Shown here: positions 9,671-51,113 of the stretch, piece after piece
How the letters are laid out: each line of letters opens with the position of its first letter
Numbering within the stretch: position 1 is the stretch's first letter
DNA from: a virus
Taxonomy: Duplodnaviria > Heunggongvirae > Uroviricota > Caudoviricetes
IMG/VR virus record: IMGVR_UViG_3300012663_000706
Direction: 5' to 3' (one strand)
DNA length: 64,000 nucleotides
Translations under genes and position numbers: made by a program
Notes under the pieces: model-generated
Told to the model about the DNA's origin: nothing
What the model saw: the letters and a program-made list of their open reading frames with translations, nothing else
Database searches by the model: none

Positions 9671-9673
9671 GTA

Positions 9674-26108: not shown

Positions 26109-26369
26109 TTAATCTCCTGCCATTATGACAAGAGCTTTTAGTTTCATTAATGTGTCGCACTTCTCATACTCTTCTAAGTTTTCGAAGTATTCAATTAGTA
26201 ATTCTATAAATTTGGAGCGTTCTCCCATGCTGTGTGGAATTTCAATAAGATCCTTCCCTTCTTGAAACACAACAAAACGATTCACGGTTTTCGTGAAGTT
26301 ACGGGTGAGAGTATAATAACTCGCTCTCATTACGTTGTCTTTTTCTCGGCTTGAAATATTATTACTCAT
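26109..26369 (-). CDS. Small protein with C-terminal UVR-like motif
   Basis: YFENLEEYEKCDTLMKL. Confidence 0.65.
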   Translation of the reverse strand: MSNNISSREKDNVMRASYYTLTRNFTKTVNRFVVFQEGKDLIEIPHSMGERSKFIELLIEYFENLEEYEKCDTLMKLKALVIMAGD

Positions 26370-26441
26370 TCGCAGGTAAAAATCTTTTTATACATTATAT
26401 ATTTACCGGATAATCCGGAATGTTAACTATATTAACGTAAT

Positions 26442-26639
26442 CTATGATTCTTTTTCTGCATTTGTCCGTAGGTTTTGGACATATGATGCTTTACGAAACT
26501 CATCTCGTCTTTCTACCGATTTCTTAGTAAATTGCTGACGATCTCGTAAGTTCTTTATTTGTTTTGTTTTAATAACCTTGCGTTTGTATTGTTTTAACGC
26601 CTGTTCTATATTTCCGTTTTTAACTTCTATTATTAGCAT
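26442..26639 (-). CDS. rpsU: Ribosomal protein bS21
   Basis: [21 protein letters not shown]...LRDRQQFTKKSVERR...KASY, a Bacteroidota-type bS21. Confidence 0.9.
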   Translation of the reverse strand: MLIIEVKNGNIEQALKQYKRKVIKTKQIKNLRDRQQFTKKSVERRDEFRKASYVQNLRTNAEKES

Positions 26640-26890
26640 GATTCTAGTTCTTTTATTATTTTTTTAAGTTCTAAACACTTCTCATATTCTTCCTTGGCCT
26701 CAAACCAGTTTATAATAAAAGTTATTGCTTCAATTTTTTGTTCAATTGTCGAAGAGCTTTTAAGGGCATCTTGTGTTTTATTAACGATGGCATCATAAAC
26801 CATGTCCATCATTTTTTCTCGCGATGCTTTTTTAATGCTATTAAAAAAACTAAAACCATCGTCGTCTAAAGGTAAATCATCTTCTGTCAT
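26633..26890 (-). CDS. Small protein with C-terminal UVR-like motif
   Basis: [18 protein letters not shown]. Confidence 0.65.
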
Positions 26891-27693
26891 TCCAATTCTT
26901 TAATTTTTTTAACTAAGTCTAACTGCGCTTCTGTTAGACCATGAAAATTCGCATGTACTTTAACCATTAGGTTCCCATACTCATTGTTCTTACTGTTATA
27001 TATTGGCATTCCTTTTCCTGGAATTCTCAATATTCTACCAGATGCGGTTTTAGCTGGAACGTCTATTTTATATTTGCCAAATGGGATTTCTACTTCAATG
27101 TTGGCACCTAAAATCAGGTCATAAAAATGAAGGTAAGCATCTACCCATATATCGCTTCCTTGTAGAATTAATGAATCGTCTGGATTGATATTAATATTAA
27201 TAATCAGATCTCCTCTTTGAGCGTTACTATTAAACCTATTGTAATCTCCTCGGCCATAGACTTTTAATACCATTCCATTGTGTAAACCTTTTCCAAAATC
27301 TACTCTAACTGAATCGTGTCCAAAATCAAAAGTTTTACTACATCCATTATAGGCTTCTGCTATAGTGAATGTCGCTCTAACGGTAACATCAGCTCCTTTA
27401 GAATTTTGTCTACTACTAAAGTTTTTGTCAAAGTCTCCAGACCAATTACCATATTGGTTAAATATGTCCTGAAAATTAAACTCTTTAAAGGTAGATTTTC
27501 CATCATACTGATCGCGTTTAACTTGATCAGATAATACCTCATACGCCTCTTGGATCTGCTGAAATTTATCAGTAGCGTCTGGTTTGTCTAGATTCCGGTC
27601 TGGATGGTGAAGTTTTGCAAGATTTCGGTAAGCCGATTTAATCTCGTCCTGTGTTGCTGCCTTTTGAACCCCTAATATTTGATAATAATTCAT
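26887..27693 (-). CDS. dnaJ: DnaJ-family co-chaperone (class B/CbpA-like, no Zn finger)
   Basis: NYYQILGV...HHPDRN J-domain plus DnaJ C-terminal domain; start set at 27693. Confidence 0.9.
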
Positions 27694-27829
27694 TTTTGTC
27701 TCTATTAAGCTGTTCTTTTCGCATTTCAATTATACTTTTCTTCTGATCACGTTCTATAACGTCAGCAATTCGCTTTAATTGGGCTGTGAGTGCAGCCATT
27801 GCTTCTAATAATTTTGGTTCTGTTGCCAT
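27638..27829 (-). CDS. Small hypothetical coiled-coil protein
   Basis: 63 aa; overlaps the DnaJ start by about 56 nt. Confidence 0.45.
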
Positions 27830-27873
27830 AATTTTCTTATTTAAAATATATGTATCTCATAAAAAAAGGAAGC

Positions 27874-28185
27874 TTATGCCTCCTTTAATTCTTCAAGATA
27901 CGACTGTATAGTTTTACATTTCTCGTATTCTTCAGTTTCAACAAACCAGTTCAACATAAAGTCTAGTGTGTCTTTTAATTGATTAGAGCTTAAGTTAGTT
28001 AATTTCATCTGCTGAACGTCAATTCCTCGTTGTTCAATTGATTTAAAATTAGCTCTAACCAGCTGATCGACCACATCGTAGTAAGTTGCCTTTACTTCAT
28101 TTGCTTTCATAATCTGCGTTATTTCGTCTTGTTCAGTTTCTTCGTTAAAATTATCATCGAAGTCGTTATAATCATTTTCGTACAT
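27874..28185 (-). CDS. Small early protein with C-terminal UVR-like motif
   Basis: WFVETEEYEKCKTIQSYL; follows a class-1 promoter. Confidence 0.65.
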   Translation of the reverse strand: MYENDYNDFDDNFNEETEQDEITQIMKANEVKATYYDVVDQLVRANFKSIEQRGIDVQQMKLTNLSSNQLKDTLDFMLNWFVETEEYEKCKTIQSYLEELKEA

Positions 28186-28202
28186 AGTATTTATTTTGAT
28201 TT

Positions 28203-28265
28203 TATAATGTAAATATAAACAATATTTTTCAAACGGTAAAACTTATTTTCAAAAAGTTATTAACA
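28203..28265 (-). promoter_or_regulatory. Class-1 promoter with upstream TGTTAATAAC box
   Basis: TTTATATTTACAT core plus box at 28256-28265. Confidence 0.72.
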
Positions 28266-28267
28266 AT

Positions 28268-28999
28268 TTAGGCTGACCTAATCGGTTGCATATTGGCAAA
28301 CTTTAAGACTAGACTGCCGGCTGCTTCAATATCTTCTTCACAATAGTTTTTAATCTCTTCAATTTTACCAGAATAGAATGCGGCTCCTACTTCTCCAGCC
28401 TGCATATCGTCTTTAGGGTTCTTAATTCCTAGTAGTAAACAAATATGAGCTAGTGCAGCGCTTGACCAGCCTCCAGCCTTCCATACTTCGTAAGTGTCGA
28501 CTAGACAATTTTCCCAAGGTTTCATCTTGTGCAAGTGTAATTGTCTAGGTAATTCAATCCCATGAAGGATTGATTTCTTAATAATGTACGGTAAATCAAA
28601 TCCTTTAATATTGTGTCCGACTATTTTAATACCTGGGGCTTTAAAGAATACTTGACTCATAAAGTTTGCGAAGCTGCTTAGTATGTCTCTCTCGTCTTCG
28701 CCGTAGAAAGATTTCTTTTGCATGTATGGATCTTCAGTTACCTCGTCAAATTTAACCTGACCAACTGAGATACAAACTATTCTACCCCATTCTGGAGATA
28801 AAGCAGCTTTTTGAAAATAGATTTCTTCGTCAGAAGATTCTCTAAGTTCAACATCTTCAGCCTTAATAAATTTAGCCTTACGATCCCAGAAGCTCATGAG
28901 TTCAGGATGCGTTTCTTTTAATTCTCCAAATGTTTTAAAACCTGAAGTAGTTTCAATGTCGATGAATAGCATCGACTTAATTTCTTCTTTAGTGTACAT
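28268..28999 (-). CDS. DEDD-type 3'-5' exonuclease (PolB-exo-like, standalone)
   Basis: FIDIET, GHNIKGFDLP and YCEED; start set at 28999. Confidence 0.85.
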   Translation of the reverse strand: MYTKEEIKSMLFIDIETTSGFKTFGELKETHPELMSFWDRKAKFIKAEDVELRESSDEEIYFQKAALSPEWGRIVCISVGQVKFDEVTEDPYMQKKSFYGEDERDILSSFANFMSQVFFKAPGIKIVGHNIKGFDLPYIIKKSILHGIELPRQLHLHKMKPWENCLVDTYEVWKAGGWSSAALAHICLLLGIKNPKDDMQAGEVGAAFYSGKIEEIKNYCEEDIEAAGSLVLKFANMQPIRSA

Positions 29000-29000
29000 A

Positions 29001-29282
29001 TTAATTGTATTTGCTTTTAGTGATTTCCGGAATTTCTTTGATAATATCAAAAATAGAACAAGGATAAATCCAGTATGAACGTCCTAATTTAGCAGCATCT
29101 GCTGGAGAAGCTGGAACAGAAAATGAATACCATTTAACACCATATGCCCTGGTTAGGTTTTCGTTTTCTTTGATTAATGTACCTTGATAGATGGACATTT
29201 TAGCCCACATAAATTCATACATTTTACCTATTTTAGGATTTTTAACGTTAAGTACTGGTACTTCTTTCGGTTTCTTAGCCAT
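29001..29282 (-). CDS. Hypothetical early protein
   Basis: 93 aa ORF directly after a class-1 promoter. Confidence 0.6.
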   Translation of the reverse strand: MAKKPKEVPVLNVKNPKIGKMYEFMWAKMSIYQGTLIKENENLTRAYGVKWYSFSVPASPADAAKLGRSYWIYPCSIFDIIKEIPEITKSKYN

Positions 29283-29291
29283 ATATCTAAT

Positions 29292-29352
29292 TTGTTATAT
29301 GTAAATATAAACAAAATAATTGACATAAAAAAATATTTATGCAATTACTTTC
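29292..29352 (-). promoter_or_regulatory. Class-1 promoter
   Basis: ATGTC-N10-TTTATATTTACATATAAC. Confidence 0.7.
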
Positions 29353-29379
29353 AAATTATATGAAAAAAAAGAAGATTGT

Positions 29380-29619
29380 TTAATCGTTGGACTCGAAGGG
29401 ATCGGCCCATGTTTTAACCGAACGGACCTTTGTATATTGGTCGTAAGTTAAATGTATACCAATGTAACCGCCTGAAATAGAATAAGGCGCGTCAGATTCG
29501 GAAAACCAGTAAGGTGGCGGAGTATCAATTCTATCATTCAAGAAATCAAATAACTCATCGACTAGCATGTGATGGATATAAATTGTAAGAACCATGCATT
29601 TGTTATTTGGATAGCCCAT
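29380..29619 (-). CDS. Hypothetical protein
   Basis: 79 aa; weakly similar to 46058-46264. Confidence 0.55.
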   Translation of the reverse strand: MGYPNNKCMVLTIYIHHMLVDELFDFLNDRIDTPPPYWFSESDAPYSISGGYIGIHLTYDQYTKVRSVKTWADPFESND

Positions 29620-30564
29620 TTACTTCTCTAATTTCCAGATAGGATTTTGTTTCGTATTTTGAGCAGAATCTTCTGCTTTAAATTTCTTTAATAGTTCTAT
29701 TGACTCTTGACTTAATTCTGTTTCGTAAAAGTCTTCGTAGATTCTTTTGTACAATTCAGTCATGATGCCAAACAGGGCTCCAGGTTCTGAATTCATTTCA
29801 AAGACGTAGATTTTACCATCTTCGGTTTCAGCCATATCGATTGCATAAAAATCTAGATCAGAATGCATATCTGAAAAATATCGACAAGCCTTAACATGAG
29901 AATCTTTTATCTTCTTAATATCCTTACAGATATAAGAGAAATTAGTTTCTTTTTCTGGATCTTTTTTAGCAATATCGGCTGTTTCTTCGTCCATTGGGAT
30001 TCTCTGCGCCCATTGAATAAGTTCTCCTCTCCATAACCAGTATCTGTGCTCTTCTTTAATTGAAATCTTTTCAGAGAATGAGGTAAATTTACTAAGGTCT
30101 GCATTTTCGAATTCTTTTGCATCCTTGAATACTGTTATCCCAAGGCCACTGTGCTCATTGTCAGGTTTTGCAACAATTGGGAATGTAAGTTTATCAACAT
30201 CCTCTGGCGCAGTTACAGTAGGGATAATATATTCACTATCAACGTGTAATTTGTAGAATTCTGATTTTGAAGAGATACTCGTACGAGCATCTGGATGGTT
30301 GTATATTTGATATTCTTGAATTGCACCAGCTTCCATGAACTTCTCAAGAGTTTCTCTATCGTAGTTTAATACTGGCATGCTTTTAGGATAATCAACAGGA
30401 TCCATGTCTTTTGTGATTATTACCCAATATTCAGAAGTATGATATGCCGGTCCGGTAATGAAAGAATCGTCGAGATCCTTTCTTCGAGTGATACACACTT
30501 TCTTGAAATCATCTGCGACGACTGCTTCGTTTATAAATTGTTCAAATGTTAATAGAGATTTCAT
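29620..30564 (-). CDS. ATP-grasp (RimK-like) ligase with capsid-targeting-like leader
   Basis: FPIVAKPDNEHSGLGI, EHR, FYAIDM and FEMNSEPG; leader MKSLLTFEQFINEA. Confidence 0.75.
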   Translation of the reverse strand: MKSLLTFEQFINEAVVADDFKKVCITRRKDLDDSFITGPAYHTSEYWVIITKDMDPVDYPKSMPVLNYDRETLEKFMEAGAIQEYQIYNHPDARTSISSKSEFYKLHVDSEYIIPTVTAPEDVDKLTFPIVAKPDNEHSGLGITVFKDAKEFENADLSKFTSFSEKISIKEEHRYWLWRGELIQWAQRIPMDEETADIAKKDPEKETNFSYICKDIKKIKDSHVKACRYFSDMHSDLDFYAIDMAETEDGKIYVFEMNSEPGALFGIMTELYKRIYEDFYETELSQESIELLKKFKAEDSAQNTKQNPIWKLEK

Positions 30565-30581
30565 ACTCTATATATTATATT

Positions 30582-31181
30582 TTATTTGTAGTGTTGACCA
30601 CCTACCCAAAGAACGAAAGATTTTCTTGTTCCTTTAGTTACAGGTTTAACCCTATGCATTAAATATGAAGGGAACACGACAACATTACCTTTTCCACGAG
30701 GAGCTTGACGAATCCATTCTCCACCTCCCCATAATTCTAAGTCTCCACCTTCGTATTCGTTATCGTCAGATAATTGAACAGTGATTGATACTTTTCTACG
30801 AGAAGCCATTCCATTTCCAATATCCTGGTGCCATGCATAATGACCACCTTCGGCTGCATAATATTCAGTGTATTGAATAGATTCTGGAGCAGAATACAAA
30901 TCAAAACCCCATAGAGCAGCATTTGCTTCAGTAGTCATTGCTGTTAATTTGTCGTACAGCCAACTCCATTCTTGAGATTGAGGAATCCATTTAATATTAG
31001 AGCTTCTAACCTTTTTATCGGTTTCTATACTGTCTGCGCCGATAATAGTTGCTTTTTCAAAAGGAAGATTTCCAACTTCTCTAGATATTTTATCTAATTC
31101 TTCTGAGGTAAATCCTTTATCAAACCAATAGTAGTTCTGAGGATCGTTTTCCGGTTGTACGAAAATGTTTTGAAAGTTCAT
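30582..31181 (-). CDS. 2OG-Fe(II) oxygenase (prolyl-4-hydroxylase-like)
   Basis: WHQD, RKVSITVQLS, YEGGDL, FPSY-HRV-PV--GTRKSFV-W. Confidence 0.9.
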   Translation of the reverse strand: MNFQNIFVQPENDPQNYYWFDKGFTSEELDKISREVGNLPFEKATIIGADSIETDKKVRSSNIKWIPQSQEWSWLYDKLTAMTTEANAALWGFDLYSAPESIQYTEYYAAEGGHYAWHQDIGNGMASRRKVSITVQLSDDNEYEGGDLELWGGGEWIRQAPRGKGNVVVFPSYLMHRVKPVTKGTRKSFVLWVGGQHYK

Positions 31182-31184
31182 ATG

Positions 31185-31847
31185 TTATTTATTTTTATTT
31201 ATTAATGCGTTAATCTCTTGATCCCAGAATGCGTATTCTTGTTGCATGTGCGTTGAATCAAAATCCTTACTCGTAACTGATATTTCTCCAGGTGTTTTTA
31301 ATCCTTCGATCCAGTATATTTTTCGATGATTTATATCCTTATTAAAGAAATATAAATAGTCATCGCCAAAAAAGACTTTAAAAATATCTGGTATCGTGAC
31401 ATAATTTTCTTTTTTAAGAATCATCATGCAACCAAATCCAAACGGTCTATTATCTAATTCAACTAATTGTAATTTGTCAGAATCAGAGTTATAATCATCT
31501 ACATTAAAATTACGTTTATACAATCCAATCATTCCAAAATTAGGATCGACTTCTACCATTTTTTCAAAATTATTCAGTAAACAATTTATGTTTAAAGAAA
31601 TGTCGTCATTGAGAAGACATATATAATTATTCTTGGTTAGAGTAGCTCCAATATTCCATGCTGGATTCACAAAGATATTCTTTTTTACCTTAATAACCGT
31701 AATTCTAGAATCTCTGTCTTTAAAATCCGAGTTAGTATTATCGATAATAATCAACTCAATATCCTTTCTATCGGATAATTTAAACGATTCAATAGTATCT
31801 TTAATCCTTTCAGATTTCCAAAGGGTCGGAATTACAAATGTTATCAT
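31185..31847 (-). CDS. Glycosyltransferase family 2
   Basis: FVIPT, IIIDN, VNPAWN, LNDD and GDD. Confidence 0.85.
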   Translation of the reverse strand: MITFVIPTLWKSERIKDTIESFKLSDRKDIELIIIDNTNSDFKDRDSRITVIKVKKNIFVNPAWNIGATLTKNNYICLLNDDISLNINCLLNNFEKMVEVDPNFGMIGLYKRNFNVDDYNSDSDKLQLVELDNRPFGFGCMMILKKENYVTIPDIFKVFFGDDYLYFFNKDINHRKIYWIEGLKTPGEISVTSKDFDSTHMQQEYAFWDQEINALINKNK

Positions 31848-33688
31848 AGTTGATAAATTTCATTTACATATCCTTCATCTTCTCCAAACTTGCTAGGAGT
31901 TCCAATCGGATCATTTGGATTCTCTTCATATGCCCAATCCTTCTGGCCTAATTCCTCAAATCTAGATTTGATTTGCTCGTTGTAGTGCCACATTATAGTT
32001 TTAACTCGACGCTGAATATCTGCTCTTGCCAAGTTATGAGAGTTTGTAGTATTACCATTATCATATATGAATTGAAGGTAGCCTAAACGTGGTATTCTCA
32101 TCATCTTGGTTTTCAAAAACGTTCTAACAATTAATTCATAATCATCTGCGATTGCAAGGTCTCTACAGTGTCCGCCTATTTCGAAATAGGTTTCTCTTCT
32201 CCAAGCTCTAACATGATTAGGAACTCCAACAATATGTCTAATTGTTTTTGGATTAATATTAGAAGATACTGCAACCTCGAAATCTTTACCCATTACATTT
32301 TCTGTAACGTAATGTCCGTAACTGAATGCAAATCCTTCTCCATATTTTAATGAATTCCAGTTTTGATCGATTTCAGCCGAGTCAGTATAAAAGAATCCAA
32401 CATCTTCATGTTTCTGAGAAGCATTAAATAAATCTTCAGTACAAGTAGGTACTAAATAATCATCATGGTCTAATTCTGCTAGAATATAACCTCTGCACAT
32501 GGTAGCGGCTCTCCATTTAACTTCTCCAATTATACCACCGCTTTTTGGCGTAAAATCGAATAGTTTAACACGTGGATCTCTTTTTGCAATTTCTTGTGCA
32601 ACCTTTAGAGTAACTCCACCGTCAGTCGAATCGTTTACAAGAACCCATTCCCAATTAGAATAAGTTTGTCTAGTAAGAGATTCATAAGTCATCCATAATT
32701 TATCTCCAGTATTATAAATTGGGGTAAAATAGGAAATAAGCTTACTAATATCATTAGTCAACATTGCGATCATTGCGCATTGATAACCTTTTTCGCCAGC
32801 ATCTACATCGCCTTCGGTTAAATTAATCCATATTTTACGGAATTCGCTAGGTGCGTTCCATAAATTCTGTAGTTGCGATGGATCTTCATATGTACTAACA
32901 ATTGCAATTGGTTTTACCCTTGCAATATCTGCATAAATATTAGAATCATCCTCGATATATTCAACTTCAAGTTCTTTAGATTCCCAATTTACAAAATTAT
33001 TTGTCTTTAGATCAGGTCGATCTTTACCAATATAGAGTATTTTCGGGAATTTAGCCTTTGAAGGTTTCTGTAAGGCATTGTAATGAGCTAGAATTTTATC
33101 TATAAATAAGAATCCATCAGGGTTCTTTTGATAAACCACTTCAATAAATTTACCATCAGCATCGTAACCTCCTTTAAAATCAAAGTCATTAAATACTGAT
33201 CGATTAAGAATAAACTGGGCTAAGTCAATTGACCTAACTTTCATATTCTCAGGTTTAGCATATCGAACATCGCATCCAGTAAAATCTTTACCGTCTACTT
33301 TTTGGTTGAATACTATTCCAATTGATTTTTCTGCTTCAGCAAATCCTACAAGAGCTTCGAAATTTTCGAATAATTTTTCATGTAGAATATTATCGTCGTC
33401 TAGAGAATAAATCCAGCCATCTGAAATATTATCAATGATAACTTTATTCATTTGAGGATATAAGTAATCTCCACCTTGCGAGAATTCAAAATAAATCTTG
33501 GCTCCAAATTGCTGTAATTTACCAAGAATCTCGGCATCAATATCTTTTAATCTAGTCGAATCAAAGATTACATGCCATTCAACTTGCAATTTACCATTTT
33601 TTATCGGTAGAGATTCTCCAACCGTAAGGATGTTATTTAATCTGCTACATCTTGTTATAATGTGCAGTTTTCGGGAATTGTTTATCAT
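31844..33688 (-). CDS. Two-domain GT2 glycosyltransferase
   Basis: N-terminal LDDDN domain; C-terminal FTPIYN...VNDSTD...ELDHDD...DDYEL domain. Confidence 0.85.
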   Translation of the reverse strand: MINNSRKLHIITRCSRLNNILTVGESLPIKNGKLQVEWHVIFDSTRLKDIDAEILGKLQQFGAKIYFEFSQGGDYLYPQMNKVIIDNISDGWIYSLDDDNILHEKLFENFEALVGFAEAEKSIGIVFNQKVDGKDFTGCDVRYAKPENMKVRSIDLAQFILNRSVFNDFDFKGGYDADGKFIEVVYQKNPDGFLFIDKILAHYNALQKPSKAKFPKILYIGKDRPDLKTNNFVNWESKELEVEYIEDDSNIYADIARVKPIAIVSTYEDPSQLQNLWNAPSEFRKIWINLTEGDVDAGEKGYQCAMIAMLTNDISKLISYFTPIYNTGDKLWMTYESLTRQTYSNWEWVLVNDSTDGGVTLKVAQEIAKRDPRVKLFDFTPKSGGIIGEVKWRAATMCRGYILAELDHDDYLVPTCTEDLFNASQKHEDVGFFYTDSAEIDQNWNSLKYGEGFAFSYGHYVTENVMGKDFEVAVSSNINPKTIRHIVGVPNHVRAWRRETYFEIGGHCRDLAIADDYELIVRTFLKTKMMRIPRLGYLQFIYDNGNTTNSHNLARADIQRRVKTIMWHYNEQIKSRFEELGQKDWAYEENPNDPIGTPSKFGEDEGYVNEIYQL

Positions 33689-33692
33689 ATTA

Positions 33693-34616
33693 TTATATTA
33701 CGTCAAAGAAAAACATGTGAAAGAATCTAGCATTTTCAATTGCATCTCCAAAGTATTTACTAGGAGCATGAATTTGTTTCGCATCAAATAGGACTAAACG
33801 ATTATATACGTTTCCAACCTCGTCGATTTTTTCAAATTGCGTCGAGTCATAGAAATTCATTGCAGCATTCTTGCCTTTAAATGTAGTTTCATATGCCTCT
33901 TGATCTTCGAAATTATCGAATCTTTTTCTACCAGTATTTTTACTAGAATAGAATGAAGTACCTGTTTCGAATGGAGCGTCTTTAGTTAAGAATACCATTC
34001 CTGCATACATTTGACTGTCGACATGAAATACTAAAGGATCGTTTGCTACGCAATATTGGAATACACCATTCGCATAACTTTCATAATTCCAGTTTGTAAT
34101 TTCACGACCGATTATTTTTTCTAATTTCTCTTTAGTACCATCTAGTATAAATCTAGTTTTGCTTCTTTTGCCTTTATGATAATCAGAAGGATTGTATTCT
34201 AGATTATTCATTGCGAAATCTCTAACAAAATCAGGATCCCCGTAGAAGTCATCAACTACAATTAAACCCTTGTCTTGATTACAGAATCCAGAATAGTATG
34301 CGATAAAATTATCGATATTACCAGGATTATAAATAAGTTCTCCAAATTTAACTTGGATCTTTGCACCTTTAGAGATATTAAAAGAAACTCCAACATTGTT
34401 GTTTTTACCAGGATAACTTTCGGTAACATCTGGTCTACTAATAACTTCTAATGGTATTTCTATATCATTGATTATCAATGAACTAACTGGTTTAAAGGTA
34501 TCACCATCCTTGACAGCTATCCAACCTACTACATTGTAATTAGTATCTGATACTTTTGTAATTGAATCAAAATGCCAGAATATGTTCTGATCGTTTGTGA
34601 AATGGTTGTAAATCAT
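33693..34616 (-). CDS. 2OG-Fe(II) oxygenase-like protein (DUF6445-like C-terminal domain)
   Basis: VVDDFYGDPDFVR, FHVD, GTSFY, YNRLVLFD---IH and RFF. Confidence 0.7.
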   Translation of the reverse strand: MIYNHFTNDQNIFWHFDSITKVSDTNYNVVGWIAVKDGDTFKPVSSLIINDIEIPLEVISRPDVTESYPGKNNNVGVSFNISKGAKIQVKFGELIYNPGNIDNFIAYYSGFCNQDKGLIVVDDFYGDPDFVRDFAMNNLEYNPSDYHKGKRSKTRFILDGTKEKLEKIIGREITNWNYESYANGVFQYCVANDPLVFHVDSQMYAGMVFLTKDAPFETGTSFYSSKNTGRKRFDNFEDQEAYETTFKGKNAAMNFYDSTQFEKIDEVGNVYNRLVLFDAKQIHAPSKYFGDAIENARFFHMFFFDVI

Positions 34617-34654
34617 AATTGTGTTTGTTATTATATCGTATGAATTGATTAAGT

Positions 34655-35680: not shown

Positions 35681-35800
35681 AATCTTATATTATTATACTA
35701 CATTCTATATATAAAGAAAAACCGGCAATTGCCGGTTGAAATATGACCCGAGAGCAGTTCTAATGGTATGCTACTCGGGTACTGTTAAATTATTTAAATC

Positions 35801-37665: not shown

Positions 37666-37666
37666 A

Positions 37667-40429: not shown

Positions 40430-40503
40430 TTTTTCTAAATATGATTAGTTTGTAAGATAATGGATCTATTCTATATATTAGAGTTAGAAAACATAAATCT
40501 GAA

Positions 40504-41682: not shown

Positions 41683-41716
41683 TAATATTTCCTATTATTT
41701 AGTTTTATTTATTCAT

Positions 41717-41743
41717 AAAAAAAGAGAGCCTTTCGGCTCTCTT
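41717..41743 (-). terminator. Intrinsic terminator
   Basis: Stem AAAGAGAGCC/GGCTCTCTTT with A-run, downstream of the 540 aa gene. Confidence 0.75.
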
Positions 41744-41768
41744 TAGTTTAAAGGTATTATAATTCTAA

Positions 41769-43391
41769 TTATGCTTTAACGTAAGTAATTATTAATGCGT
41801 CAGAAGAATCAATTTGGTAAGCAATACCAGCCCATGTAACTTCAACACCAGTCATTGACGTAGGTGCAGGAATTCTAACTCCATTTACGAATAAGTGAAC
41901 GCTTCCTAAAGCTACAGGAGCGTTTGCTAACGTTAATGTAAATGGTGCAGATGGTGGTTTAGTAACAAATCCGGCCATTGTGTAGTTCTCACTAACTAGA
42001 TCAGCATCAGCTACATAGTTAGTATCGATAGAAGCGATGGTTGCTTCAACGTTCGTTACTCTAAGAGCTATTGAAGTATCAGCAGTTCCTCTAGTTGTAA
42101 TTTCAGAACCTAATGCAGTTTCTAATGAATCAACAGATCCGTCAGCACGTAAAACGAAAGAAGCAAAAGCAGTATCGTTAGTTGTATCTACGGCGTTAAT
42201 TAATGAAACGATCTCAGCGAACGTGTCAGTACTTGCGCCAGCGGATAATAAGATAGCATCAATTCTGTTTTTCTCAGTAGTGATAGAAGTTGCTAATGAA
42301 GTATCACCTGAACCTCTAGCAGTAATTTCGCCAGATAATGCAGTTTCTAATGAATCAACAGAAGCATTTACAGCAGTTACAGCAGTTCCTCTAGTTGTTT
42401 CTTCAGTAGAAATTCTAGTAGTTAATGAAGTATCAGCAGTTGCTCTAGATGCTTCTTCAGAAGAAATTCTAGTAGTTGCTGAAGTATCACCTGAACCTCT
42501 AGCAGTAATTTCGCCAGATAAAGCAGTTTCTAAAGAATCAATAGAAGCGGTTTGCGCAGTATTGATGGTTTCTAAAGAAGTAATTGCAGTACCTTGGTTA
42601 GTGTTTACTAATTCAATTGCAGTAGCTCTAGTATCAACAGAAGTTTTAGTTGCTAAAGTTCCAGCTAAAGTTTCTAAAGAATCAACAGAAGCATTTTGTG
42701 CAGTGTTAATAGTCTCTAAAGAAGTTACAGCAGTACCTAAAGAAGTAATTGATGTACCTTGAACCGTGTTTACAGATTCTACAGTAGATACTCTTGTGTC
42801 AACTGAAGTTTTAGTTGCTAAAGTTCCAGCTAAAGTTTCTAATGAATCAACAGAAGAGTTAATTGAAGAATCAACAGTGTTGATTGCAGTAACTACAGCT
42901 TCTAATGAATCAACAGATGCTTGAATTAATGTATCAGCAGAACCTCTTGCAGTTATCTCTCCAGATAATGCAGTTTCTAATGAATCAACAGAAGATACTA
43001 ATGAAGAGTCAACTGTTGCTAAAGAAGTTACAGCAGTACCTAAAGAAGTAATTGAAGTACCTTGTGTAGTATTTACTGATTCTACAGTAGATACTCTCGT
43101 ATCAACCGATGTTTTTGTTGCTAGCGTTCCAGCTAACGTCTCTAAAGAGTCTATTGAAGCTCCGTCTGCGGCAGCAGCAGTTTCAAGAGAATCTACTGAA
43201 TTTTGCAAAGCGGTTAAACTGCTACCGGTTGCTACACCAGCTAATACAGTTTCAATAGAGTCAACAGATGCTTCAGCTGCAGTAAATCTGGTATTTACCG
43301 CTGATGCATTTGGAATCTGAGCACTAGTTACCGTACCCCAGTTTACGGTGGCTAAGAAATCAGAAATTTGTTTTGACCTTAATTGCGACAT
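41769..43391 (-). CDS. Ser/Thr/Ala-rich coiled-coil fibre protein
   Basis: About 10 S[VI]DSLET repeats, a DTFAEI motif and a C-terminal VNG...ITY beta domain. Confidence 0.7.
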   Translation of the reverse strand: MSQLRSKQISDFLATVNWGTVTSAQIPNASAVNTRFTAAEASVDSIETVLAGVATGSSLTALQNSVDSLETAAAADGASIDSLETLAGTLATKTSVDTRVSTVESVNTTQGTSITSLGTAVTSLATVDSSLVSSVDSLETALSGEITARGSADTLIQASVDSLEAVVTAINTVDSSINSSVDSLETLAGTLATKTSVDTRVSTVESVNTVQGTSITSLGTAVTSLETINTAQNASVDSLETLAGTLATKTSVDTRATAIELVNTNQGTAITSLETINTAQTASIDSLETALSGEITARGSGDTSATTRISSEEASRATADTSLTTRISTEETTRGTAVTAVNASVDSLETALSGEITARGSGDTSLATSITTEKNRIDAILLSAGASTDTFAEIVSLINAVDTTNDTAFASFVLRADGSVDSLETALGSEITTRGTADTSIALRVTNVEATIASIDTNYVADADLVSENYTMAGFVTKPPSAPFTLTLANAPVALGSVHLFVNGVRIPAPTSMTGVEVTWAGIAYQIDSSDALIITYVKA

Positions 43392-43523
43392 ATGTTTATA
43401 AATTGTTTTTGGTCCCAGTTCATTATTGCCCTGGTATGATTTATATATTATTGAAGATCCTATATATTAGAAGATCTATCAATATTATAGTATTCTTTTG
43501 ATGAGAATTATATTATTATTTTA

Positions 43524-44969
43524 TTACGATTCGATCTGATACGTGATGTCTATTCTGTCATCACTATCTAAATTATAACCTGCTAAAATACCGTTCCAAT
43601 ATAGAGTATCTCCAATAGATAGCTGTGAATAATTTTTAGGTGTTGCACCTCCATCTACAGAGAAATAGCATGCTTGGTTAGTTCCTGCGCCGTCTTTGAC
43701 ATCTATAATCGATCCATTTACATTAATTTCGATAAATGTTGCTGATGTAGGTTGTCTAGATAGAGTTATTCCAGTAGAAGAATTATTTCCAGAAGTTGTA
43801 TCAGGAATTCTATTTCTTTCAGTGAATGATATTGGATGTGATATGGCTGCGAGATTACCAATGCTTGTAAATATTGATAGCAATTGGGAAGACAACTGAG
43901 ATTCTAAAGAATCAATTGAAGATGTTAATGAAGCACCTCCACCGGTGGCAGAAATTTCAAGAGAATCAATTGAAGAAAGAACATGCACTAGAGAAGATAG
44001 TTGAGATTCTAAAGAATCAACTGAAGAAGGTAACGTGTTTCCACTAATCGTAGTTTCTAAAGAATCGATTGAGGAAAGAACATAAGATAAAGAAGTTTCG
44101 ATATCGGCTACATCGGCATATGCCTCTAATTGGTAAGATATTCTTGAACCGACTTTCCATTCTAGATTAGCATAAACTTGGCTACTCGTCGCTGCTTCAA
44201 ATTCTAATACTAGTCTTATAGCATCAGCGAATTCGTCATTAGTACCTCCATTTAAATTAATTCTACTCCATGACAAAATCTTATAAACCGCGTATTGTGT
44301 AGGTGCCAGAGTATTTATTAATGTTATAACTCCGTTGCAATCAACCAGTCTTTTCGTTAAGAAATTTTCTAATGAAGATAATCTAATATTATTTTCATTT
44401 AAATTATTGAACGTAATTGAAGTAACACTTGATGGAGTACCACTATTAACGGATGCTGTACCAGATGCAGTTGGGTTTTGATTGGTGATAGAACTAATAT
44501 TGAATGTAGAAACTAATGAATCTCCAGCAACAGCTTCCTGTAATGCCGGAATACCAGTAGCTGCAACAGTACCTAATTCAAATTGATCGAATGCGTAAGT
44601 TTTCGTGGACGGATAATAGTTCTTAGTATCTACAAAAACTACTTCGGCATATATAGCTCCAACTTCTAGTTTGCTAGAATAGAATTGAGAGATTGTAAAT
44701 TCAATTTCTCCTTTAGTTGCAGGATTTGTTGAAACTCCAATAGGTTCTCCACCAAACGCACTTAGATCATCCGGATATCTGAATGTTAATAATCTTTTTC
44801 CAGCAGCGTTAAACAAAGATATTCTAAGAGATCCTGAATTTCTTACATCTAATTGTTGTCCTATGAAATCTTTAAAGAAAGTTAATTTTACGTTAGTTGA
44901 TACTCCTTGTCCAATACCAACTGTTTGCTCTAAATATATTAGAATGTCATCTTTTGCAACGTACGCCAT
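43524..44969 (-). CDS. Putative virion protein with SIDSLE repeats
   Basis: Four S[VI]DSLE repeats and a C-terminal VNG...IDITY domain shared with its neighbour. Confidence 0.6.
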   Translation of the reverse strand: MAYVAKDDILIYLEQTVGIGQGVSTNVKLTFFKDFIGQQLDVRNSGSLRISLFNAAGKRLLTFRYPDDLSAFGGEPIGVSTNPATKGEIEFTISQFYSSKLEVGAIYAEVVFVDTKNYYPSTKTYAFDQFELGTVAATGIPALQEAVAGDSLVSTFNISSITNQNPTASGTASVNSGTPSSVTSITFNNLNENNIRLSSLENFLTKRLVDCNGVITLINTLAPTQYAVYKILSWSRINLNGGTNDEFADAIRLVLEFEAATSSQVYANLEWKVGSRISYQLEAYADVADIETSLSYVLSSIDSLETTISGNTLPSSVDSLESQLSSLVHVLSSIDSLEISATGGGASLTSSIDSLESQLSSQLLSIFTSIGNLAAISHPISFTERNRIPDTTSGNNSSTGITLSRQPTSATFIEINVNGSIIDVKDGAGTNQACYFSVDGGATPKNYSQLSIGDTLYWNGILAGYNLDSDDRIDITYQIES

Positions 44970-45020
44970 TTTATCTGTTTATTGTTTTTATCTTGTTTAT
45001 ATATTTGGAATACTCATCGA

Positions 45021-45716
45021 TCAAGTGTTAGTTTTAAGATAATTAAATAATTTATACCTTGTAATAGGCAGGAGACAGGTTTCTAAAGGAAAAGCTTTTT
45101 TAACGTCTGCTCTTATGCATATCCTACCATGCTCATTTAGGCCGACGAGTGTTACAAAATCAGATATTTTTTCAATAGAATAATCTTCAACATCGGCTAT
45201 CGTTTCAAATTTAAAATCTTTCCAACCTGATAATACAGAACTTGGCTTAATAAAACTGTAAATTCTATATTTTTTATCGACAGTACATAGGATTAGGTAC
45301 CCATTAACATAGACTCTTTTATGTTCGGGTATTTGTGTAAAATTAATAAACTTTTCAGTATCTCTCCATTTAGCCCTAATATCTTTGTATATTTTCTCAA
45401 AGAATAAAGTAGCGTCTTCAGAAATACTTATTATAGTATTAATTTCTTCGGAGTTGTCGTGGTTGTATTCGTATTGAAGAGACATTGTATCAATATCAAT
45501 GCCCTTGAGAGTTCTTAATCTAGAAGTAATTTCGTCGATTTTGTATTTGAACTTGTAGAGATAATCTAGATGGAGTTCAACCTCGTCTAGTACTGGAAAA
45601 ATGTCACCATCCTTTATTAACGACTGATATTTATTAGCCGCTGAAAGAAGCTTATACTTCTTAAATTCGTAATCTATAGGTTGGGAAGTAAGCCAATCAT
45701 TATCCAATATCTCCAT
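45021..45716 (-). CDS. Hypothetical protein
   Basis: 231 aa; N-terminal DWLT...IDYEFKKYKLL; late-type motif upstream. Confidence 0.65.
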   Translation of the reverse strand: MEILDNDWLTSQPIDYEFKKYKLLSAANKYQSLIKDGDIFPVLDEVELHLDYLYKFKYKIDEITSRLRTLKGIDIDTMSLQYEYNHDNSEEINTIISISEDATLFFEKIYKDIRAKWRDTEKFINFTQIPEHKRVYVNGYLILCTVDKKYRIYSFIKPSSVLSGWKDFKFETIADVEDYSIEKISDFVTLVGLNEHGRICIRADVKKAFPLETCLLPITRYKLFNYLKTNT

Positions 45717-45746
45717 GATGTATTTATCACGGAGATATTGCCAATG

Positions 45747-46061
45747 TTAATTCTTTTTCTTAATTTTAACTGGCCCAGAATTATTTTTCGAAGGTGAAAT
45801 ATATTCTGTTGAGGATGTAGTCAATCCCCATTGTAGAATAAACCAACTAGCTTCCATTTCTGCCAGCTTTTTAGTTAATCCTAATTCTTTGCTAATTCTA
45901 GAAACACAATACTCGGTAAATTTCTTTTGCTCTTCTTGTGTTGTCTGGAAATTCATATACCAATTCGGCATATCTACAACCTCTTCGTAAGTTTTTCCGA
46001 ATGGTTCGAGTTGCTTGTTAATTAATTCAATAAACAGCTTTCTTTGTCTATCTCTGCTCAT
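45747..46061 (-). CDS. Hypothetical protein
   Basis: 104 aa ORF in the clpP operon. Confidence 0.6.
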   Translation of the reverse strand: MSRDRQRKLFIELINKQLEPFGKTYEEVVDMPNWYMNFQTTQEEQKKFTEYCVSRISKELGLTKKLAEMEASWFILQWGLTTSSTEYISPSKNNSGPVKIKKKN

Positions 46062-46264
46062 AATTCAATAAGTTCATTTAATAATCCTCGATCAGTCAAA
46101 GCAATAAATTCATTTGAAGACATAGATACTTGAACGTATCCTTTAGCAGGAATGTTTTGATATGTTATATCATCTTGTTCGTCAGGATCAAGAGACCATA
46201 CAATATCGAGAATTCTTTTTAAGTATTCTACTTTACCTGATTCGATGTAAATATGTACATTCAT
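46058..46264 (-). CDS. Hypothetical protein
   Basis: 68 aa ORF with ATGA overlap. Confidence 0.55.
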   Translation of the reverse strand: MNVHIYIESGKVEYLKRILDIVWSLDPDEQDDITYQNIPAKGYVQVSMSSNEFIALTDRGLLNELIEL

Positions 46265-46268
46265 TTTA

Positions 46269-46949
46269 TTATTTATTCTTTTTTACAATAGAGTCTATAA
46301 TACCATATTCTAAAGCTTGGTTAGCGTCTAACCATAAATCTCTTTCGGCATCTTTTTTAACTATTTCTGGATCCTTGTCGCAATATTCTCCTAAAAGAGT
46401 AAATAGAGTATCGTTAATTTTGATCCATTCCTTCCAGTCAATAGCAGCATCTTGAATATTTCCGCTAAAACCTCCAGAAGATTGGTGTAACATTGTCGTA
46501 CTGAATCTTAATGAAGACCTTTTACCTTTAGTTCCGGCTCCTAACAAGATCGATCCCATTGATGCGGCCATACCGGTATTTACGGTCTTAATATCACTCT
46601 TAATGTAATCCATAACATCCACCATTGATAATCCGGATTTACAGCTTCCGCCACCAGAATCAATATGCATTGTAATATCGTCGTTGTTTACTGAATCCAG
46701 AAACATCAACTGAGCCTGTACAATGGTTGACATATTATCGTTAACTTCTCCAGCTACCCATAATAATCGATCCATCATTAATCTAGAGAAAATGTCCATT
46801 TGACTAACTCTTAATTCTCTCTCTTCTAAAATATACGGTGTTAAAGATCCTTGGACCTGTTTACCATAATAGTCTAATTTTAAAGATGAGATATTATGCT
46901 CAGATTTGGCATATCTATTAAATTCTTTGTCTTTGCTGTAGTAGTTCAT
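46269..46949 (-). CDS. clpP: ATP-dependent Clp protease proteolytic subunit
   Basis: LTPYILEER...MDIFSRLMMDR (Bacteroidota type); catalytic AASMG, MLHQ and ERD intact. Confidence 0.95.
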   Translation of the reverse strand: MNYYSKDKEFNRYAKSEHNISSLKLDYYGKQVQGSLTPYILEERELRVSQMDIFSRLMMDRLLWVAGEVNDNMSTIVQAQLMFLDSVNNDDITMHIDSGGGSCKSGLSMVDVMDYIKSDIKTVNTGMAASMGSILLGAGTKGKRSSLRFSTTMLHQSSGGFSGNIQDAAIDWKEWIKINDTLFTLLGEYCDKDPEIVKKDAERDLWLDANQALEYGIIDSIVKKNK

Positions 46950-47257
46950 AATTGTTCTAGTATTTCTTTAATAATTTTACAAGTTTCGTATTCCTCTATT
47001 TCTAAAAAATAGGTGTGTGCTTTGTTTAATGATTTTTTCCAGTTTTCTTTTTCTAAACTAATATCGTATTTGCTTCCGTTGTCATCTTCGAACTGGCATA
47101 ATATATTATGCTTGATTGTACCATCTAATGTGTTTAAAACATGCGAAACTATTTGTCTATTTAACGTGTCTTCTCCTTCTCTTTCAAGATAATTACTAAG
47201 TAACTTATTGGAATGATTCCGCCCTAGCATTATCTTTATTATTGGTACTTTTTTCAT
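46946..47257 (-). CDS. Small protein with C-terminal UVR-like motif
   Basis: YFLEIEEYETCKIIKEIL; coupled to the clpP start. Confidence 0.65.
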   Translation of the reverse strand: MKKVPIIKIMLGRNHSNKLLSNYLEREGEDTLNRQIVSHVLNTLDGTIKHNILCQFEDDNGSKYDISLEKENWKKSLNKAHTYFLEIEEYETCKIIKEILEQL

Positions 47258-48113
47258 TAATGGTTACGTTTAAGTATTTAGATAAAACGGCTAGATATTC
47301 TACATTTTTAGAATTTTCATTAGTAGAGATTGTGTCGATTTCGTCAATGTAATCTTTACCAATTTCGGTTAAGGCAAAATTATTAAAATCATCAACATAG
47401 AATAATGGTTTTGTAAGCTCCATAGAATATTGATTATCTGATTTTCCGTTTTCTAGAATGTTTTCAGATAATTCAAAATGTCTTTCGTAATAATGGATAT
47501 TATCGGCAAAATGAGCATACTCTCCAATTTCTAAAGTTGGATATGTTTCTTTTAACCAAAGGTACATGTGTTGGTGGACCACTGCGAAAAAAGGAGCGTC
47601 AAATGTAAGACCATAGAAAATATCATTAGATCTCATTTGAACTTTCATATTCAATTTATTATCTCTAATAAAGAAGTTAAGGTACATTGTACAAACAAAA
47701 TCTTTATTGCCTGCAAATTGATACTTTGGCTGATTCAAGAATGCGATTGCTTGACGAGTATTTACATCAGCTTTTAAACTATCTAAACACCATTTTAACT
47801 GGGGTCCAAATAGTAATGCACCATAGTTTGAATTAATTTCGTTTGTACCAGGATTTGTAATACCTTTCCAGAAATTAGAGAACTTATTAATGTAATCGAT
47901 ATCACAGTCTTTTTTAAGATACCATGCTACTTCTCCAGCGAAATATTTCCAGTTAAACGCTCTATCTTTAAATGATGCAAAAGGCTGAGTAGAATCTACT
48001 GAGTATTGACCATATATTAATTCACGAACTTTTAAACTTCTTGGCTGAGATTCAGAACCGTTTTTATTAATGTCTTCGATTATATCGATAAACGTGTTTG
48101 AGAAATTGCTCAT
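47205..48113 (-). CDS. Thymidylate-synthase-superfamily enzyme, probable dCMP hydroxymethylase (T4 gp42-like)
   Basis: INSNYG, DFVCT and MRSNDIFYGLTFD, with Asp at the position where ThyA has Asn. Confidence 0.75.
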   Translation of the reverse strand: MSNFSNTFIDIIEDINKNGSESQPRSLKVRELIYGQYSVDSTQPFASFKDRAFNWKYFAGEVAWYLKKDCDIDYINKFSNFWKGITNPGTNEINSNYGALLFGPQLKWCLDSLKADVNTRQAIAFLNQPKYQFAGNKDFVCTMYLNFFIRDNKLNMKVQMRSNDIFYGLTFDAPFFAVVHQHMYLWLKETYPTLEIGEYAHFADNIHYYERHFELSENILENGKSDNQYSMELTKPLFYVDDFNNFALTEIGKDYIDEIDTISTNENSKNVEYLAVLSKYLNVTINEKSTNNKDNARAESFQ

Positions 48114-48139
48114 TGTTTTTAATTATAAAGGTTATACAC

Positions 48140-50158
48140 TTATTTTAAGGAAAGTTTACTCGCATCTTTCTCATGAGTGATCGTATAGAAAAACTCAGTC
48201 GATGGAGTAATTGCCTTGTCGATAATCGAATCTGCTAATAAATCTTCTACAAAATGCTGGATCGCTCTTTTAATAGGTCTTGCACCATAGGCAATATCAT
48301 AACCTTCTTTAACTAAAAACAATTTAGCTGATTTTGTAAATTTAATCGTGATTCCCTGATCTAATAATCTTTCAGAAACTTCTGCTAATTCAAGTTCTAC
48401 AATCTTAAGAATAGATTCTTCAGATAATTGCTCGAATAGAATCATGTCGTCTAATCTATTTAGGAATTCTGGTGGGAATTTATTCTTTAATTCTTTTCTG
48501 ATCACCGACTCCATTTTAGCCTTTTGGCTAGATATTGAACCATCTGTAAAACCAATACCTACTCCAAATTCAGAGAATTTACGGGCACCGATATTAGAAG
48601 TCATAATGATAATAGTATTTGTAAAATCAATTGTTCTACCTAAAGAATCAGTTAATCTACCGTCATCTAGAACCTGCAATAAAGTATTGAAAATATCTGG
48701 ATGTGCTTTTTCAATCTCATCAAATAATACTACTGAATAAGGTTTTCTACGAACTTGCTCGGTTAATTGACCGCCTTCTTCGTATCCAACATATCCTGGA
48801 GGAGCACCAACTAGACGAGAAACTGTAAATTTCTCAGAGTACTCGCTCATATCGATTCTAATTAAATTATCTTCTGAACCGAAATAATATTCTGTAAGTG
48901 CCTTTACTGTTTCTGTTTTACCAACTCCAGTTGGACCAATAAACATGAATGAACCAATTGGCTTTTTAGCTGAAGATACTCCAGTTCTAGAACGCTTAAT
49001 AACTCTACATAAAGAATCTACCGCTTCGTTCTGGCCAATTATAATTTTATTCAATTCTTTATTCATTCCTATAATCATCTTACTCTCATCTCCGTTTAGA
49101 CGAGTAACTGGAATTCCAGTAATTTCAGCGATTGTAGCAGCAACATCTTGGTCGGTAACATGTCTACGTTTATCTCGTAAACTCTTTTCCCAATCTTTTA
49201 ATTTAGCCTCGATTTCTTTTCTTTTACCAAGTTCAGAATCTCTAAAGTTTGCAGCAGCTTCGTAATCTTGTTTAGATACCGCCTCGTGTTTTTGTTTTCC
49301 AAACTCTTCGGCATCATCTTCCATTTTTTTAACGTAAGGAGGAACCTTAATTTCTAGTAAATGTATCTTAGCACCAACTTCGTCCATTATATCGATAGCC
49401 TTGTCCGGCAATTCTCGTTGGGTGATATATCTTTCAGATAACTTTACACAAGCTTCAATGGCTTCAGGAGTATAAGTTACCGAGTGGTGGTCTTCGTATT
49501 TCTCTTTAATTTTATTTAAGATTTCGATAGCTTCATCAGTTGAAGGTGGATCTACGAAAACTTCTTGAAAACGGCGAGTTAGGGCTCCATCCTCTTCAAT
49601 ATGTTCTCTATATTCGTCGGTTGTTGTAGCACCAATACAATGAACTTGTCCTCTTGCAAGGGCAGGTTTTAGAATATTAGAAGCATCTAAAGATCCAGAA
49701 GAACCTCCAGCGCCGATCAAAGTATGAATCTCATCAATGAATACTATAACGTCCTGATTTGACTTAAGTTCGTCAACAATCATTTTCATTCTCTCTTCAA
49801 ATTCTCCACGGTATTTTGTACCAGCTACGATTGTAGTTAAGTTAAGAGAGATAATTTTCTTATTTAATAGAGTACGTGCAACTTTCTTTTCGACTATGCG
49901 CTGAGCAATTGCTTCGACGATTGCAGTTTTACCAACTCCTGGATCTCCCAAGATAATTGGATTATTTTTCTTTCGACGAGAAAGAATTTGGCAAACACGA
50001 TGAACTTCTTTTTCTCTACCGATAATTGGATCTAATTTACCTTCAGCGGCTAGCTGTGTTAAATCTTCTCCAAACTGATCTAGAAACGGAGTTCTACCTT
50101 TTCCACCTTTTTTGGGACTAGTTCCCGTGTTATTTATATCGTCTATGTTATCCATCAT
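48140..50158 (-). CDS. clpC: ClpC-like AAA+ unfoldase lacking the N-terminal Clp-repeat domain
   Basis: Two Walker A motifs ([16 protein letters not shown]), UVR M-domain [11 protein letters not shown] and ClpP-docking IGF loop. Confidence 0.9.
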
Positions 50159-50842: not shown

Positions 50843-50843
50843 A

Positions 50844-51113
50844 TTAATCTTCTTTTTGGATTGAACCTCGATTAGGTCCAAACGACATTAAACGTTGAAC
50901 ACAATTACTACATAGAACGCCGGTCGAATCAGGACTAGAAAAAACCCATTGGTCGCAAACACCATCTTCTGGAGCCGCTTGAGAATATTTACTTAATTCA
51001 GGTTTGGAGTTCATGCAAATCATTGCGTGACCCATCTTTCCAGTTTTAGATCCTAAGATTGTTGTTTCCATTATCCTAGTCTTCCAACCAACTACTTCTT
51101 TTTTACTCGCCAT
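50844..51113 (-). CDS. Small Cys-containing hypothetical protein
   Basis: C...C...CSNC, a possible zinc ribbon. Confidence 0.55.
   Translation of the reverse strand: MASKKEVVGWKTRIMETTILGSKTGKMGHAMICMNSKPELSKYSQAAPEDGVCDQWVFSSPDSTGVLCSNCVQRLMSFGPNRGSIQKED

Follow-up and report, generated by a model that had tools for sequence, protein, structure and literature searches.

A small protein encoded beside clpP as a candidate regulator of a phage ClpCP protease whose ClpC lacks the N-domain

The IMG/VR virus record IMGVR_UViG_3300012663_000706, described as a marine, uncultured myovirus, was analysed over a stretch of 64,000 nucleotides, hereafter the window. It encodes a ClpC-type Hsp100 unfoldase without the N-terminal Clp repeat domain, a ClpP peptidase and, immediately upstream of clpP, a 103-residue protein that ends in a short module with the core EEYE[KT]C. 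Three further small proteins in the window carry the same module. We propose the clpP-adjacent protein (46946–47257) as a testable candidate regulator of the phage ClpCP. In the form that we favour, and to which we give somewhat less than an even chance, it would be an accessory factor dedicated to the protease that the phage itself encodes, capping or activating the N-domain-less (N-less) ClpC, with the other three paralogs forming a separate group. The genes of this cassette are as follows.

46269–46949, minus strand: ClpP peptidase; its ATG overlaps the stop codon of the paralog (ATGA)
46946–47257, minus strand: EEYETC family member of 103 residues, ClpCP-linked, identified from its translation; candidate ClpC regulator or adaptor
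47205–48113, minus strand: thymidylate-synthase-family (thyA-like) gene, Pfam PF00303; its 3' end extends over the start of the paralog
48140–50158, minus strand: ClpC-type Hsp100 unfoldase without Clp_N, 672 residues, from Pfam and PHROG matches

The unfoldase has the architecture of a ClpC-type class I Hsp100, with two AAA+ modules (D1 and D2) and a D2-small domain (Pfam AAA, 2e-26; AAA_lid_9, 1e-30; AAA_2, 3e-71; ClpB_D2-small, 4e-24). It matches ClpC in the PDB with E=4e-220 and covers positions 167–743 of the 764-position phrog_4871. A short coiled-coil M-domain with its UVR motif is retained (PF02151 at residues 288–309, 22.3 bits against a cut-off of 21.5). The tip of this domain reads QDYEAAA opposite QEFEKAA in B. 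subtilis ClpC (full segment QEFEKAASLRD), which places Tyr299 as the equivalent of the tip aromatic F436. The loop that contacts ClpP is also present, with GVGIGF (GIGF) opposite NKYVGF (VGF) of B. subtilis, and conforms to the pattern [LIV]-G-[FL]. Across 36 viral N-less ClpCs neither the tip aromatic nor the UVR signature varies, and the ClpP-loop residues G536 and F537 are invariant in the alignment of viral N-less ClpCs.

The alignment of the phage protein with residues 145–782 of B. subtilis ClpC is essentially gapless, and the first 144 residues of the latter (Clp_N) have no counterpart in the phage ClpC. No Clp_N domain (PF02861) was found in five related viral genomes, one of which is complete (256 kb, with direct terminal repeats). 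Judged from these sequences, the phage ClpC is truly N-domain-less, and an N-domain is not encoded elsewhere in the related genomes examined. The Clp_N repeat domain is the site at which adaptors and substrates dock on ClpC. Since it is missing here, docking on the N-domain is impossible for the phage enzyme. The partner peptidase is a full-length S14 peptidase (Pfam CLP_protease, PF00574, E=1e-52) with an intact catalytic triad, whose serine (GMAASMG), histidine (MLHQS) and aspartate (ERD) align to solved ClpP. The first-pass annotation of this DNA had described both genes in these terms, a ClpC that lacks the N-domain and keeps the UVR M-domain and the IGF loop, and a ClpP with an intact triad, and both descriptions are borne out.

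N-less ClpC appears to be common in IMG/VR viral contigs. Among the best 80 viral loci with ClpC relatives, about 46 encode an N-less protein of 667–722 residues. Some 25 N-less loci, out of 59 distant ones, are only 51–57% identical to the window ClpC, and most of them have no adjacent clpP. In a 212-kb relative (G014:C1:10881-12846, IMGVR_UViG_3300046170_000378), ClpC is represented by two overlapping open reading frames (ORFs) of 525 and 169 residues, which points to a frameshift or an assembly error.

Gene linkage was surveyed in the best 80 viral loci with ClpC relatives, in the records carrying a second gene cluster, encoding DnaJ, bS21 and PhoH, that is described below, and in the contigs G001–G004. 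At all 21 loci where ClpC is at least 67% identical to that of the window, an N-less ClpC of 667–691 residues is accompanied by the thyA-like gene and by a family member before clpP, with ClpP 1.2–2 kb downstream. All nine further ClpC-positive records with the DnaJ/bS21/PhoH cluster have a fourth family member about 1 kb from clpC, and the contigs G002–G004 show the same cassette arrangement. With overlaps counted once, 29 distinct contigs keep the cassette. The linkage is therefore real, and of the four paralogs only the clpP-adjacent one is tied to the phage protease. A distant N-less ClpC locus with a family member 2.5 kb away (L103) was considered as an independent co-occurrence and set aside, the member there being coupled to an RNA ligase gene.

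Complex prediction lends weak support to a contact between the ClpC D1 and M-domain region and the paralog. The pair of ClpC(1-350) and the clpP-adjacent protein scored 0.47 (runs of 0.47, 0.48 and 0.45), compared with a maximum of 0.00 in three controls. At least 43% of contacts are common to the runs, and the partner has a predicted local distance difference test score (pLDDT) of 77 or more. The mark applied to the complex score is reached by 58 of 80 solved complexes and by two of 110 mismatched pairs; scores that reach it at 0.60 or below comprise only seven of the 80 solved complexes and both mismatches. Given the moderate prior supplied by the cassette, the modelled binding of the paralog to ClpC stands at roughly even odds, and the specific mechanism of tip capping is less probable than binding as such. 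The pairing with phage ClpC that the first-pass annotation had envisaged thus gains weak support for the clpP-adjacent protein.

An engineered form of S. aureus ClpC offers an analogy for what such binding might achieve. When its N-domain is deleted (delta-N ClpC), the normal resting state is lost and the protein forms head-to-head ring dimers through the M-domain tips (Jenne et al. 2025, PMC12583610). Together with ClpP, delta-N ClpC forms rods without proteolytic activity, whereas combining the deletion with F436A yields a fully active, toxic protein of relaxed specificity (PMC12583610). The phage ClpC closely matches this construct, including the short retained linker, and by analogy may be regarded as its natural counterpart with the tip aromatic intact. 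Because delta-N ClpC is inactive as ring dimers held by the M-domain tips, an activator that caps the tip is a plausible mechanism. Some factor occupying the tip would be required for a useful phage enzyme, or would at least make it one, and the clpP-coupled paralog is the obvious candidate. An N-less ClpC with an intact M-domain would lock into head-to-head ring dimers through its aromatic tip and would be proteolytically inactive until the tip contacts are broken. The hairpin of the paralog would bind the D1/M-domain region of ClpC, with its invariant tyrosine aligned with the tip aromatic of ClpC, and capping of the tip would free active hexamers for ClpP. The alpha/beta N-terminal part of the paralog might present substrates. 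The paralog would be co-transcribed and translationally coupled with clpP within the cassette, and the other three paralogs would belong to a separate, more widespread DnaJ/bS21/PhoH cluster (with or without Hsp20) that is independent of the phage ClpCP. What the analysis shows directly is the sequences themselves, the family relationships, the conserved gene order and the missing N-domain; binding, and with it capping or activation, is inferred.

The module itself is sharply defined. In a six-frame search of the window, EEYE[KT]C has exactly four matches (26157–26174, 26675–26692, 27916–27933 and 46979–46996), and none was found in 100 shuffles. All four lie in small minus-strand ORFs, 10–15 residues short of the stop codon; the claim made earlier of four small proteins with a shared C-terminal motif is thus confirmed. 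A profile of the module scores the four paralogs at 55–65 bits and the next best ORF of the window at 5.8 bits. The module occupies the C-terminal 30–40 residues and follows the pattern hydrophobic-x-[YWF][FY]-x3-E-E-Y-E-[KT]-C-x2-[LI]. Homology between the paralog subfamilies is confined to it (hhalign probability 94%, E=1e-7, 29 columns), and nothing was detected between their N-terminal parts.

The module is predicted to be a helix-turn-helix hairpin. In AlphaFold2 (AF2) models the motif falls on a tight turn that joins two helices, at residues 50–64 and 68–83 in the 86-residue paralog (26109–26369; pLDDT 69.5) and at residues 70–86 and 90–102 in the clpP-adjacent paralog (pLDDT 85.5). The predicted order of elements in the latter is strand, helix, beta-hairpin, helix, turn and helix, and a preceding helix and a beta-hairpin insert are found in the models of two subfamilies.

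The family defined by the module is very large. Searches with the module profile (E<=1e-3) recovered at least 1205 protein clusters at 50% identity. Most of these proteins have 43–140 residues and carry the module C-terminally, and 112 of the top 147 match EEYEKC exactly. Metagenomes contain over 1000 close relatives, and orthologs within the 86-residue subfamily are 62–99% identical across viral contigs. Five longer carriers (P0127, P0172, P0236, P0129 and P0186) comprise three with DUF3846-like N-terminal parts, one with two tandem modules and one with a fused HU (Bac_DNA_binding) fragment. Fused forms were considered as a functional clue, but the search for them gave three matches, one of which joins DUF3846 to the module, and no functional lead. 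Two small ORFs 3–4.5 kb upstream of clpC in relatives (L036:1281-1529 and L042:3079-3447) end in EELYDHC..LKK and EEFELC..LQK. With E of about 1–5 they miss the profile threshold, and given such degenerate modules the family may extend beyond the strict motif.

Searches against described families gave no assignment. No Pfam family scored above 15 bits on the four paralogs, and their only PHROG matches had E>=0.003 and were all of unknown function. When three paralogs were compared by tblastn with 50,697 phage records, no relative was found, and no cultured phage in that set carries them. Profile searches of PDB sequences with the module gave chance-level matches only. Foldseek searches of the PDB with both AF2 models returned nothing at E<=0.001, with McsA rows at E>2. 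In the wide VIA-align search, the best Z score of 5.6 belonged to unrelated helical proteins and lies within the range expected for helical models. For tetratricopeptide repeats (TPR) there was no Pfam match, and TPR proteins appeared in VIA-align only at Z 4.6–4.8 among many helical rows. The known Clp adaptors MecA, ClpS, McsA/McsB and SPO1 Gp53 gave no Pfam, PHROG or PDB sequence match to the paralogs. Neighbours in the ESM Atlas and BFVD were all uncharacterised viral proteins, among the matches listed, and the string EEYEKC was not found in the literature searched. As far as these sequence comparisons reach, the module defines a very large family without a Pfam, PHROG or literature name.

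The first-pass annotation had labelled the four proteins UVR-like, a label that is weak and is best read as a resemblance at the level of the motif. The UVR domain (PF02151), which occurs in UvrB, UvrC, McsA and the ClpC M-domain, shares with the phage module a predicted helix-turn-helix and a [YF]-E-x-small motif opening the second helix, but the UVR signature A-A-x-L-R-D is replaced in the module by C-x-x-[LI]-[KQ]. A UVR-type hairpin with the motif opening helix 2 is seen in the predicted structures of two paralogs. The Pfam UVR model had no match on the four window proteins (E<=1) or on 24 relatives (E<=10), and in the related genomes it matched only the M-domain of ClpC and no family member. 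It did reach E<0.01 on two of 147 family representatives, and UVR is assigned to 13–32% of the members of two neighbouring ESM Atlas clusters. When the module profile was compared with the whole ClpC profile by hhalign, a single match was obtained (E=0.52), which sets EEYEKCxxLK on ClpC residues 296–306 (QDYEAAAxFR) and the invariant module tyrosine on ClpC Tyr299. The resemblance to UVR is therefore faint but recurrent.

The other three paralogs lie about 20 kb from clpCP and are surrounded by genes for PhoH, bS21, DnaJ and a PolB-exo-like protein; the fourth is flanked by the thyA-like gene and clpP. This division, with one paralog coupled to clpP and three around bS21 and DnaJ, agrees with the earlier description.

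25398–26093, minus strand: PhoH-like ATPase, Pfam PF02562; conserved right-hand neighbour of the paralog cluster by synteny in relatives
26109–26369, minus strand: EEYEKC family member of 86 residues, the most conserved subfamily
26442–26639, minus strand: bS21 ribosomal protein homolog, Pfam PF01165, E=5e-12
26633–26890, minus strand: EEYEKC family member of 85 residues, translationally coupled to dnaJ (upstream) and to bS21 (downstream)
26887–27729, minus strand: DnaJ homolog (J domain and DnaJ_C); its stop codon overlaps the start of the 85-residue paralog (ATGA)
27874–28185, minus strand: EEYEKC family member of 103 residues with an acidic N-terminus; orthologs at the same position in relatives

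The 85-residue paralog also overlaps the start of bS21. In relatives the gene order is exo, (Hsp20), paralog, 65-residue ORF, DnaJ, paralog, bS21, paralog and PhoH. An Hsp20 gene lies between the exo-like gene and a 102-residue paralog in three loci (L001–L003); the corresponding interval of the window (28185–28268) is too short for it, so the presence of Hsp20 in the cluster varies by this comparison. The 103-residue paralog at 27874–28185 is immediately followed by a terminator-like hairpin that has a T-run (27886–27865, minus strand), which suggests that this gene is transcribed separately from dnaJ. A scan for sigma-70 promoters gave matches at chance level, and the early promoter ascribed to one paralog in the first-pass annotation stays putative. 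The cluster also stands in the middle of a 170-kb contig (G001) that encodes neither ClpC nor ClpP at any position. Clp-less relatives as a test of co-absence were otherwise of little use: of nine further ClpC-negative contigs, eight break off so close to the cluster that they carry no information, which makes G001 the single clearly informative case, and it lacks a whole block of genes.

Nearly all genes of the window lie on the minus strand, its G+C content is about 34%, and no tRNA gene was found in it. T4-like baseplate wedge and tail-fibre genes are encoded, on the basis of which the source is assigned to an uncultured myovirus. Just upstream of clpC are two further genes.

50189–50881: LOG/SLOG (lysine-decarboxylase-like) gene
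51103–51336: KTSC-domain gene

A phage homolog of bS1 (5870–7087) has Bacteroidales bS1 as its nearest relative at about 26–30% identity, in a search that was biased by its retrieval pattern; it hints weakly at a host among the Bacteroidota.

Several observations weigh against a dedicated role of the clpP-adjacent protein in ClpCP function. Real as the linkage is, the 29 contigs represent effectively one evolutionary event in one lineage. In one subgroup (L028–L034, at about 9190–10035), a glycosyltransferase family 25 (GT25) gene stands between the paralog and clpP; by its position it breaks the translational coupling there, and the coupling is thus not universal. Two distant contigs in which an N-less clpC adjoins clpP (G026 and G027; their ClpC is about 53% identical) each carry three family members, none of them beside clpCP, two others (G024 and G025) carry an N-less ClpC and no family member, and the roughly 25 distant N-less loci among the 59 mostly have no family member nearby. 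The Clp-less contig G001 also lacks the thyA-like and LOG genes; this is an absence at the level of the block, and co-absence therefore fails to single out ClpCP. At 0.47 the complex score lies in a range in which, without a good prior, a pass is wrong more often than it is right, and the prediction reported no interface. The hhalign match of the module to the M-domain tip lacks statistical significance, and the conservation of EEYE-x-C could be purely structural, reflecting helix N-capping and packing of the hairpin core.

Alternatively, the module may be a generic structural or self-association hairpin, a stable helix-turn-helix cap, that many unrelated small phage proteins reuse. The protein next to clpP would then have an unrelated function, and would owe its place to gene order inherited in a T4-like genome of strong synteny instead of to physical contact with ClpC or ClpP. 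The N-terminal parts joined to the module in the at least 1205 clusters are highly diverse (DUF3846, HU fragment fusions and one two-module protein), the family member at L103 follows an RNA ligase and a kinase rather than a Clp gene, and the module has no significant match to any known binding domain. Going by the AF2 models, folding alone may suffice to explain the N-cap formed by E-x-x-E and the core residues F, Y and C. However, six consecutive residues are invariant across subfamilies that otherwise share nothing, which is beyond the usual demands of folding, all 29 distinct contigs keep the cassette strictly, and the complex score, weak support as it is, compares with 0.00 for the controls. 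We regard this explanation as rather unlikely. The proposal of the first-pass annotation, in which all four paralogs would be interchangeable UVR-tagged adaptors bringing different host proteins to the phage ClpCP, is very improbable. It would account for a module common to four proteins with different N-terminal parts, for a phage ClpC without the usual adaptor-docking domain and for the motif-level resemblance to the ClpC tip, but the trio belongs to a conserved cluster of its own some 20 kb away from clpCP and is present in the 170-kb G001 without ClpC or ClpP. In addition, the 86-residue subfamily is far more widespread than the cassette, the family extends to at least 1205 clusters, and G026 and G027 have no member beside clpCP.

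The cluster paralogs, and perhaps the whole family, could instead dock on host machinery, such as the M-domain coiled coils of ClpB or ClpC, other UVR proteins, or DnaK/DnaJ in the manner of TPR-like co-chaperones, and so re-program host proteostasis. The embedding of the trio with dnaJ (through the ATGA coupling) and, in relatives, with Hsp20, its occurrence without phage Clp, the best structural matches, which include three-helix and TPR-like rows (Z 4.6–5.6), and the recurrent faint UVR signal are in line with such a role. The structural and UVR signals all lie below significance, however, and bS1 points only weakly to Bacteroidota as the host; we consider this reading improbable. For the trio, such partners are suggested by genomic context only, and if the hairpin is no more than a folding unit these proteins may have no partner. 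A bolder extension, which we hold to be improbable to the same degree, would have the EEYEKC hairpin imitate the Hsp100 M-domain tip in a way specific to viruses, as a portable plug that docks hundreds of small phage proteins on the phage N-less ClpC or on host ClpB/ClpC and switches the unfoldase on, off or to new substrates, the clpP-coupled paralog being the activating subunit of a deregulated viral ClpCP.

The dedicated accessory factor that we favour can be set beside several described systems. ClpC–ClpP of B. subtilis and S. aureus, with its adaptor MecA, has the same two-ring Hsp100, UVR M-domain, tip aromatic and ClpP loop as the phage ClpC. In contrast to that system, the phage N-domain is naturally absent, no MecA, McsB or ClpS homolog is present, and the candidate partner has no detectable homology to known ClpC adaptors. 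The phage SPO1 protein Gp53 (PMC6873191) is, like the paralog proposed here, a small phage protein thought to modulate ClpCP. Gp53 acts on host ClpC, whereas the phage described here brings its own N-less ClpC together with ClpP, and no sequence relationship was found between the two small proteins. ClpL is a stand-alone disaggregase that is not known to have a ClpP loop. The phage ClpC differs from it in having this loop and an adjacent clpP. ClpL and delta-N ClpC are Hsp100s with no or a short N-domain in which the tip aromatic mediates ring-ring contacts (PMC12583610), and the phage ClpC keeps this aromatic as Tyr299. Phage ClpP (PMC7824862) and adaptor-like phage proteins (PMC6873191) are already known; a natural N-less ClpC–ClpP cassette with a conserved small partner was not found described in the literature searched.

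How the N-domain and the M-domain control ClpC is under active study and is of interest for drug targeting. The cassette represents a natural delta-N ClpC, conserved with ClpP and a small uncharacterised protein, of the type of construct that is inactive in vitro unless the M-domain contacts are broken (PMC12583610). The analysis also delimits a large unnamed module of at least 1205 clusters, which in this phage group lies beside chaperone and ribosomal-protein genes. If the clpP-adjacent paralog relieves the block on its ClpC, it would be a new type of Hsp100 regulator and would show how phages run an unrestrained protease.

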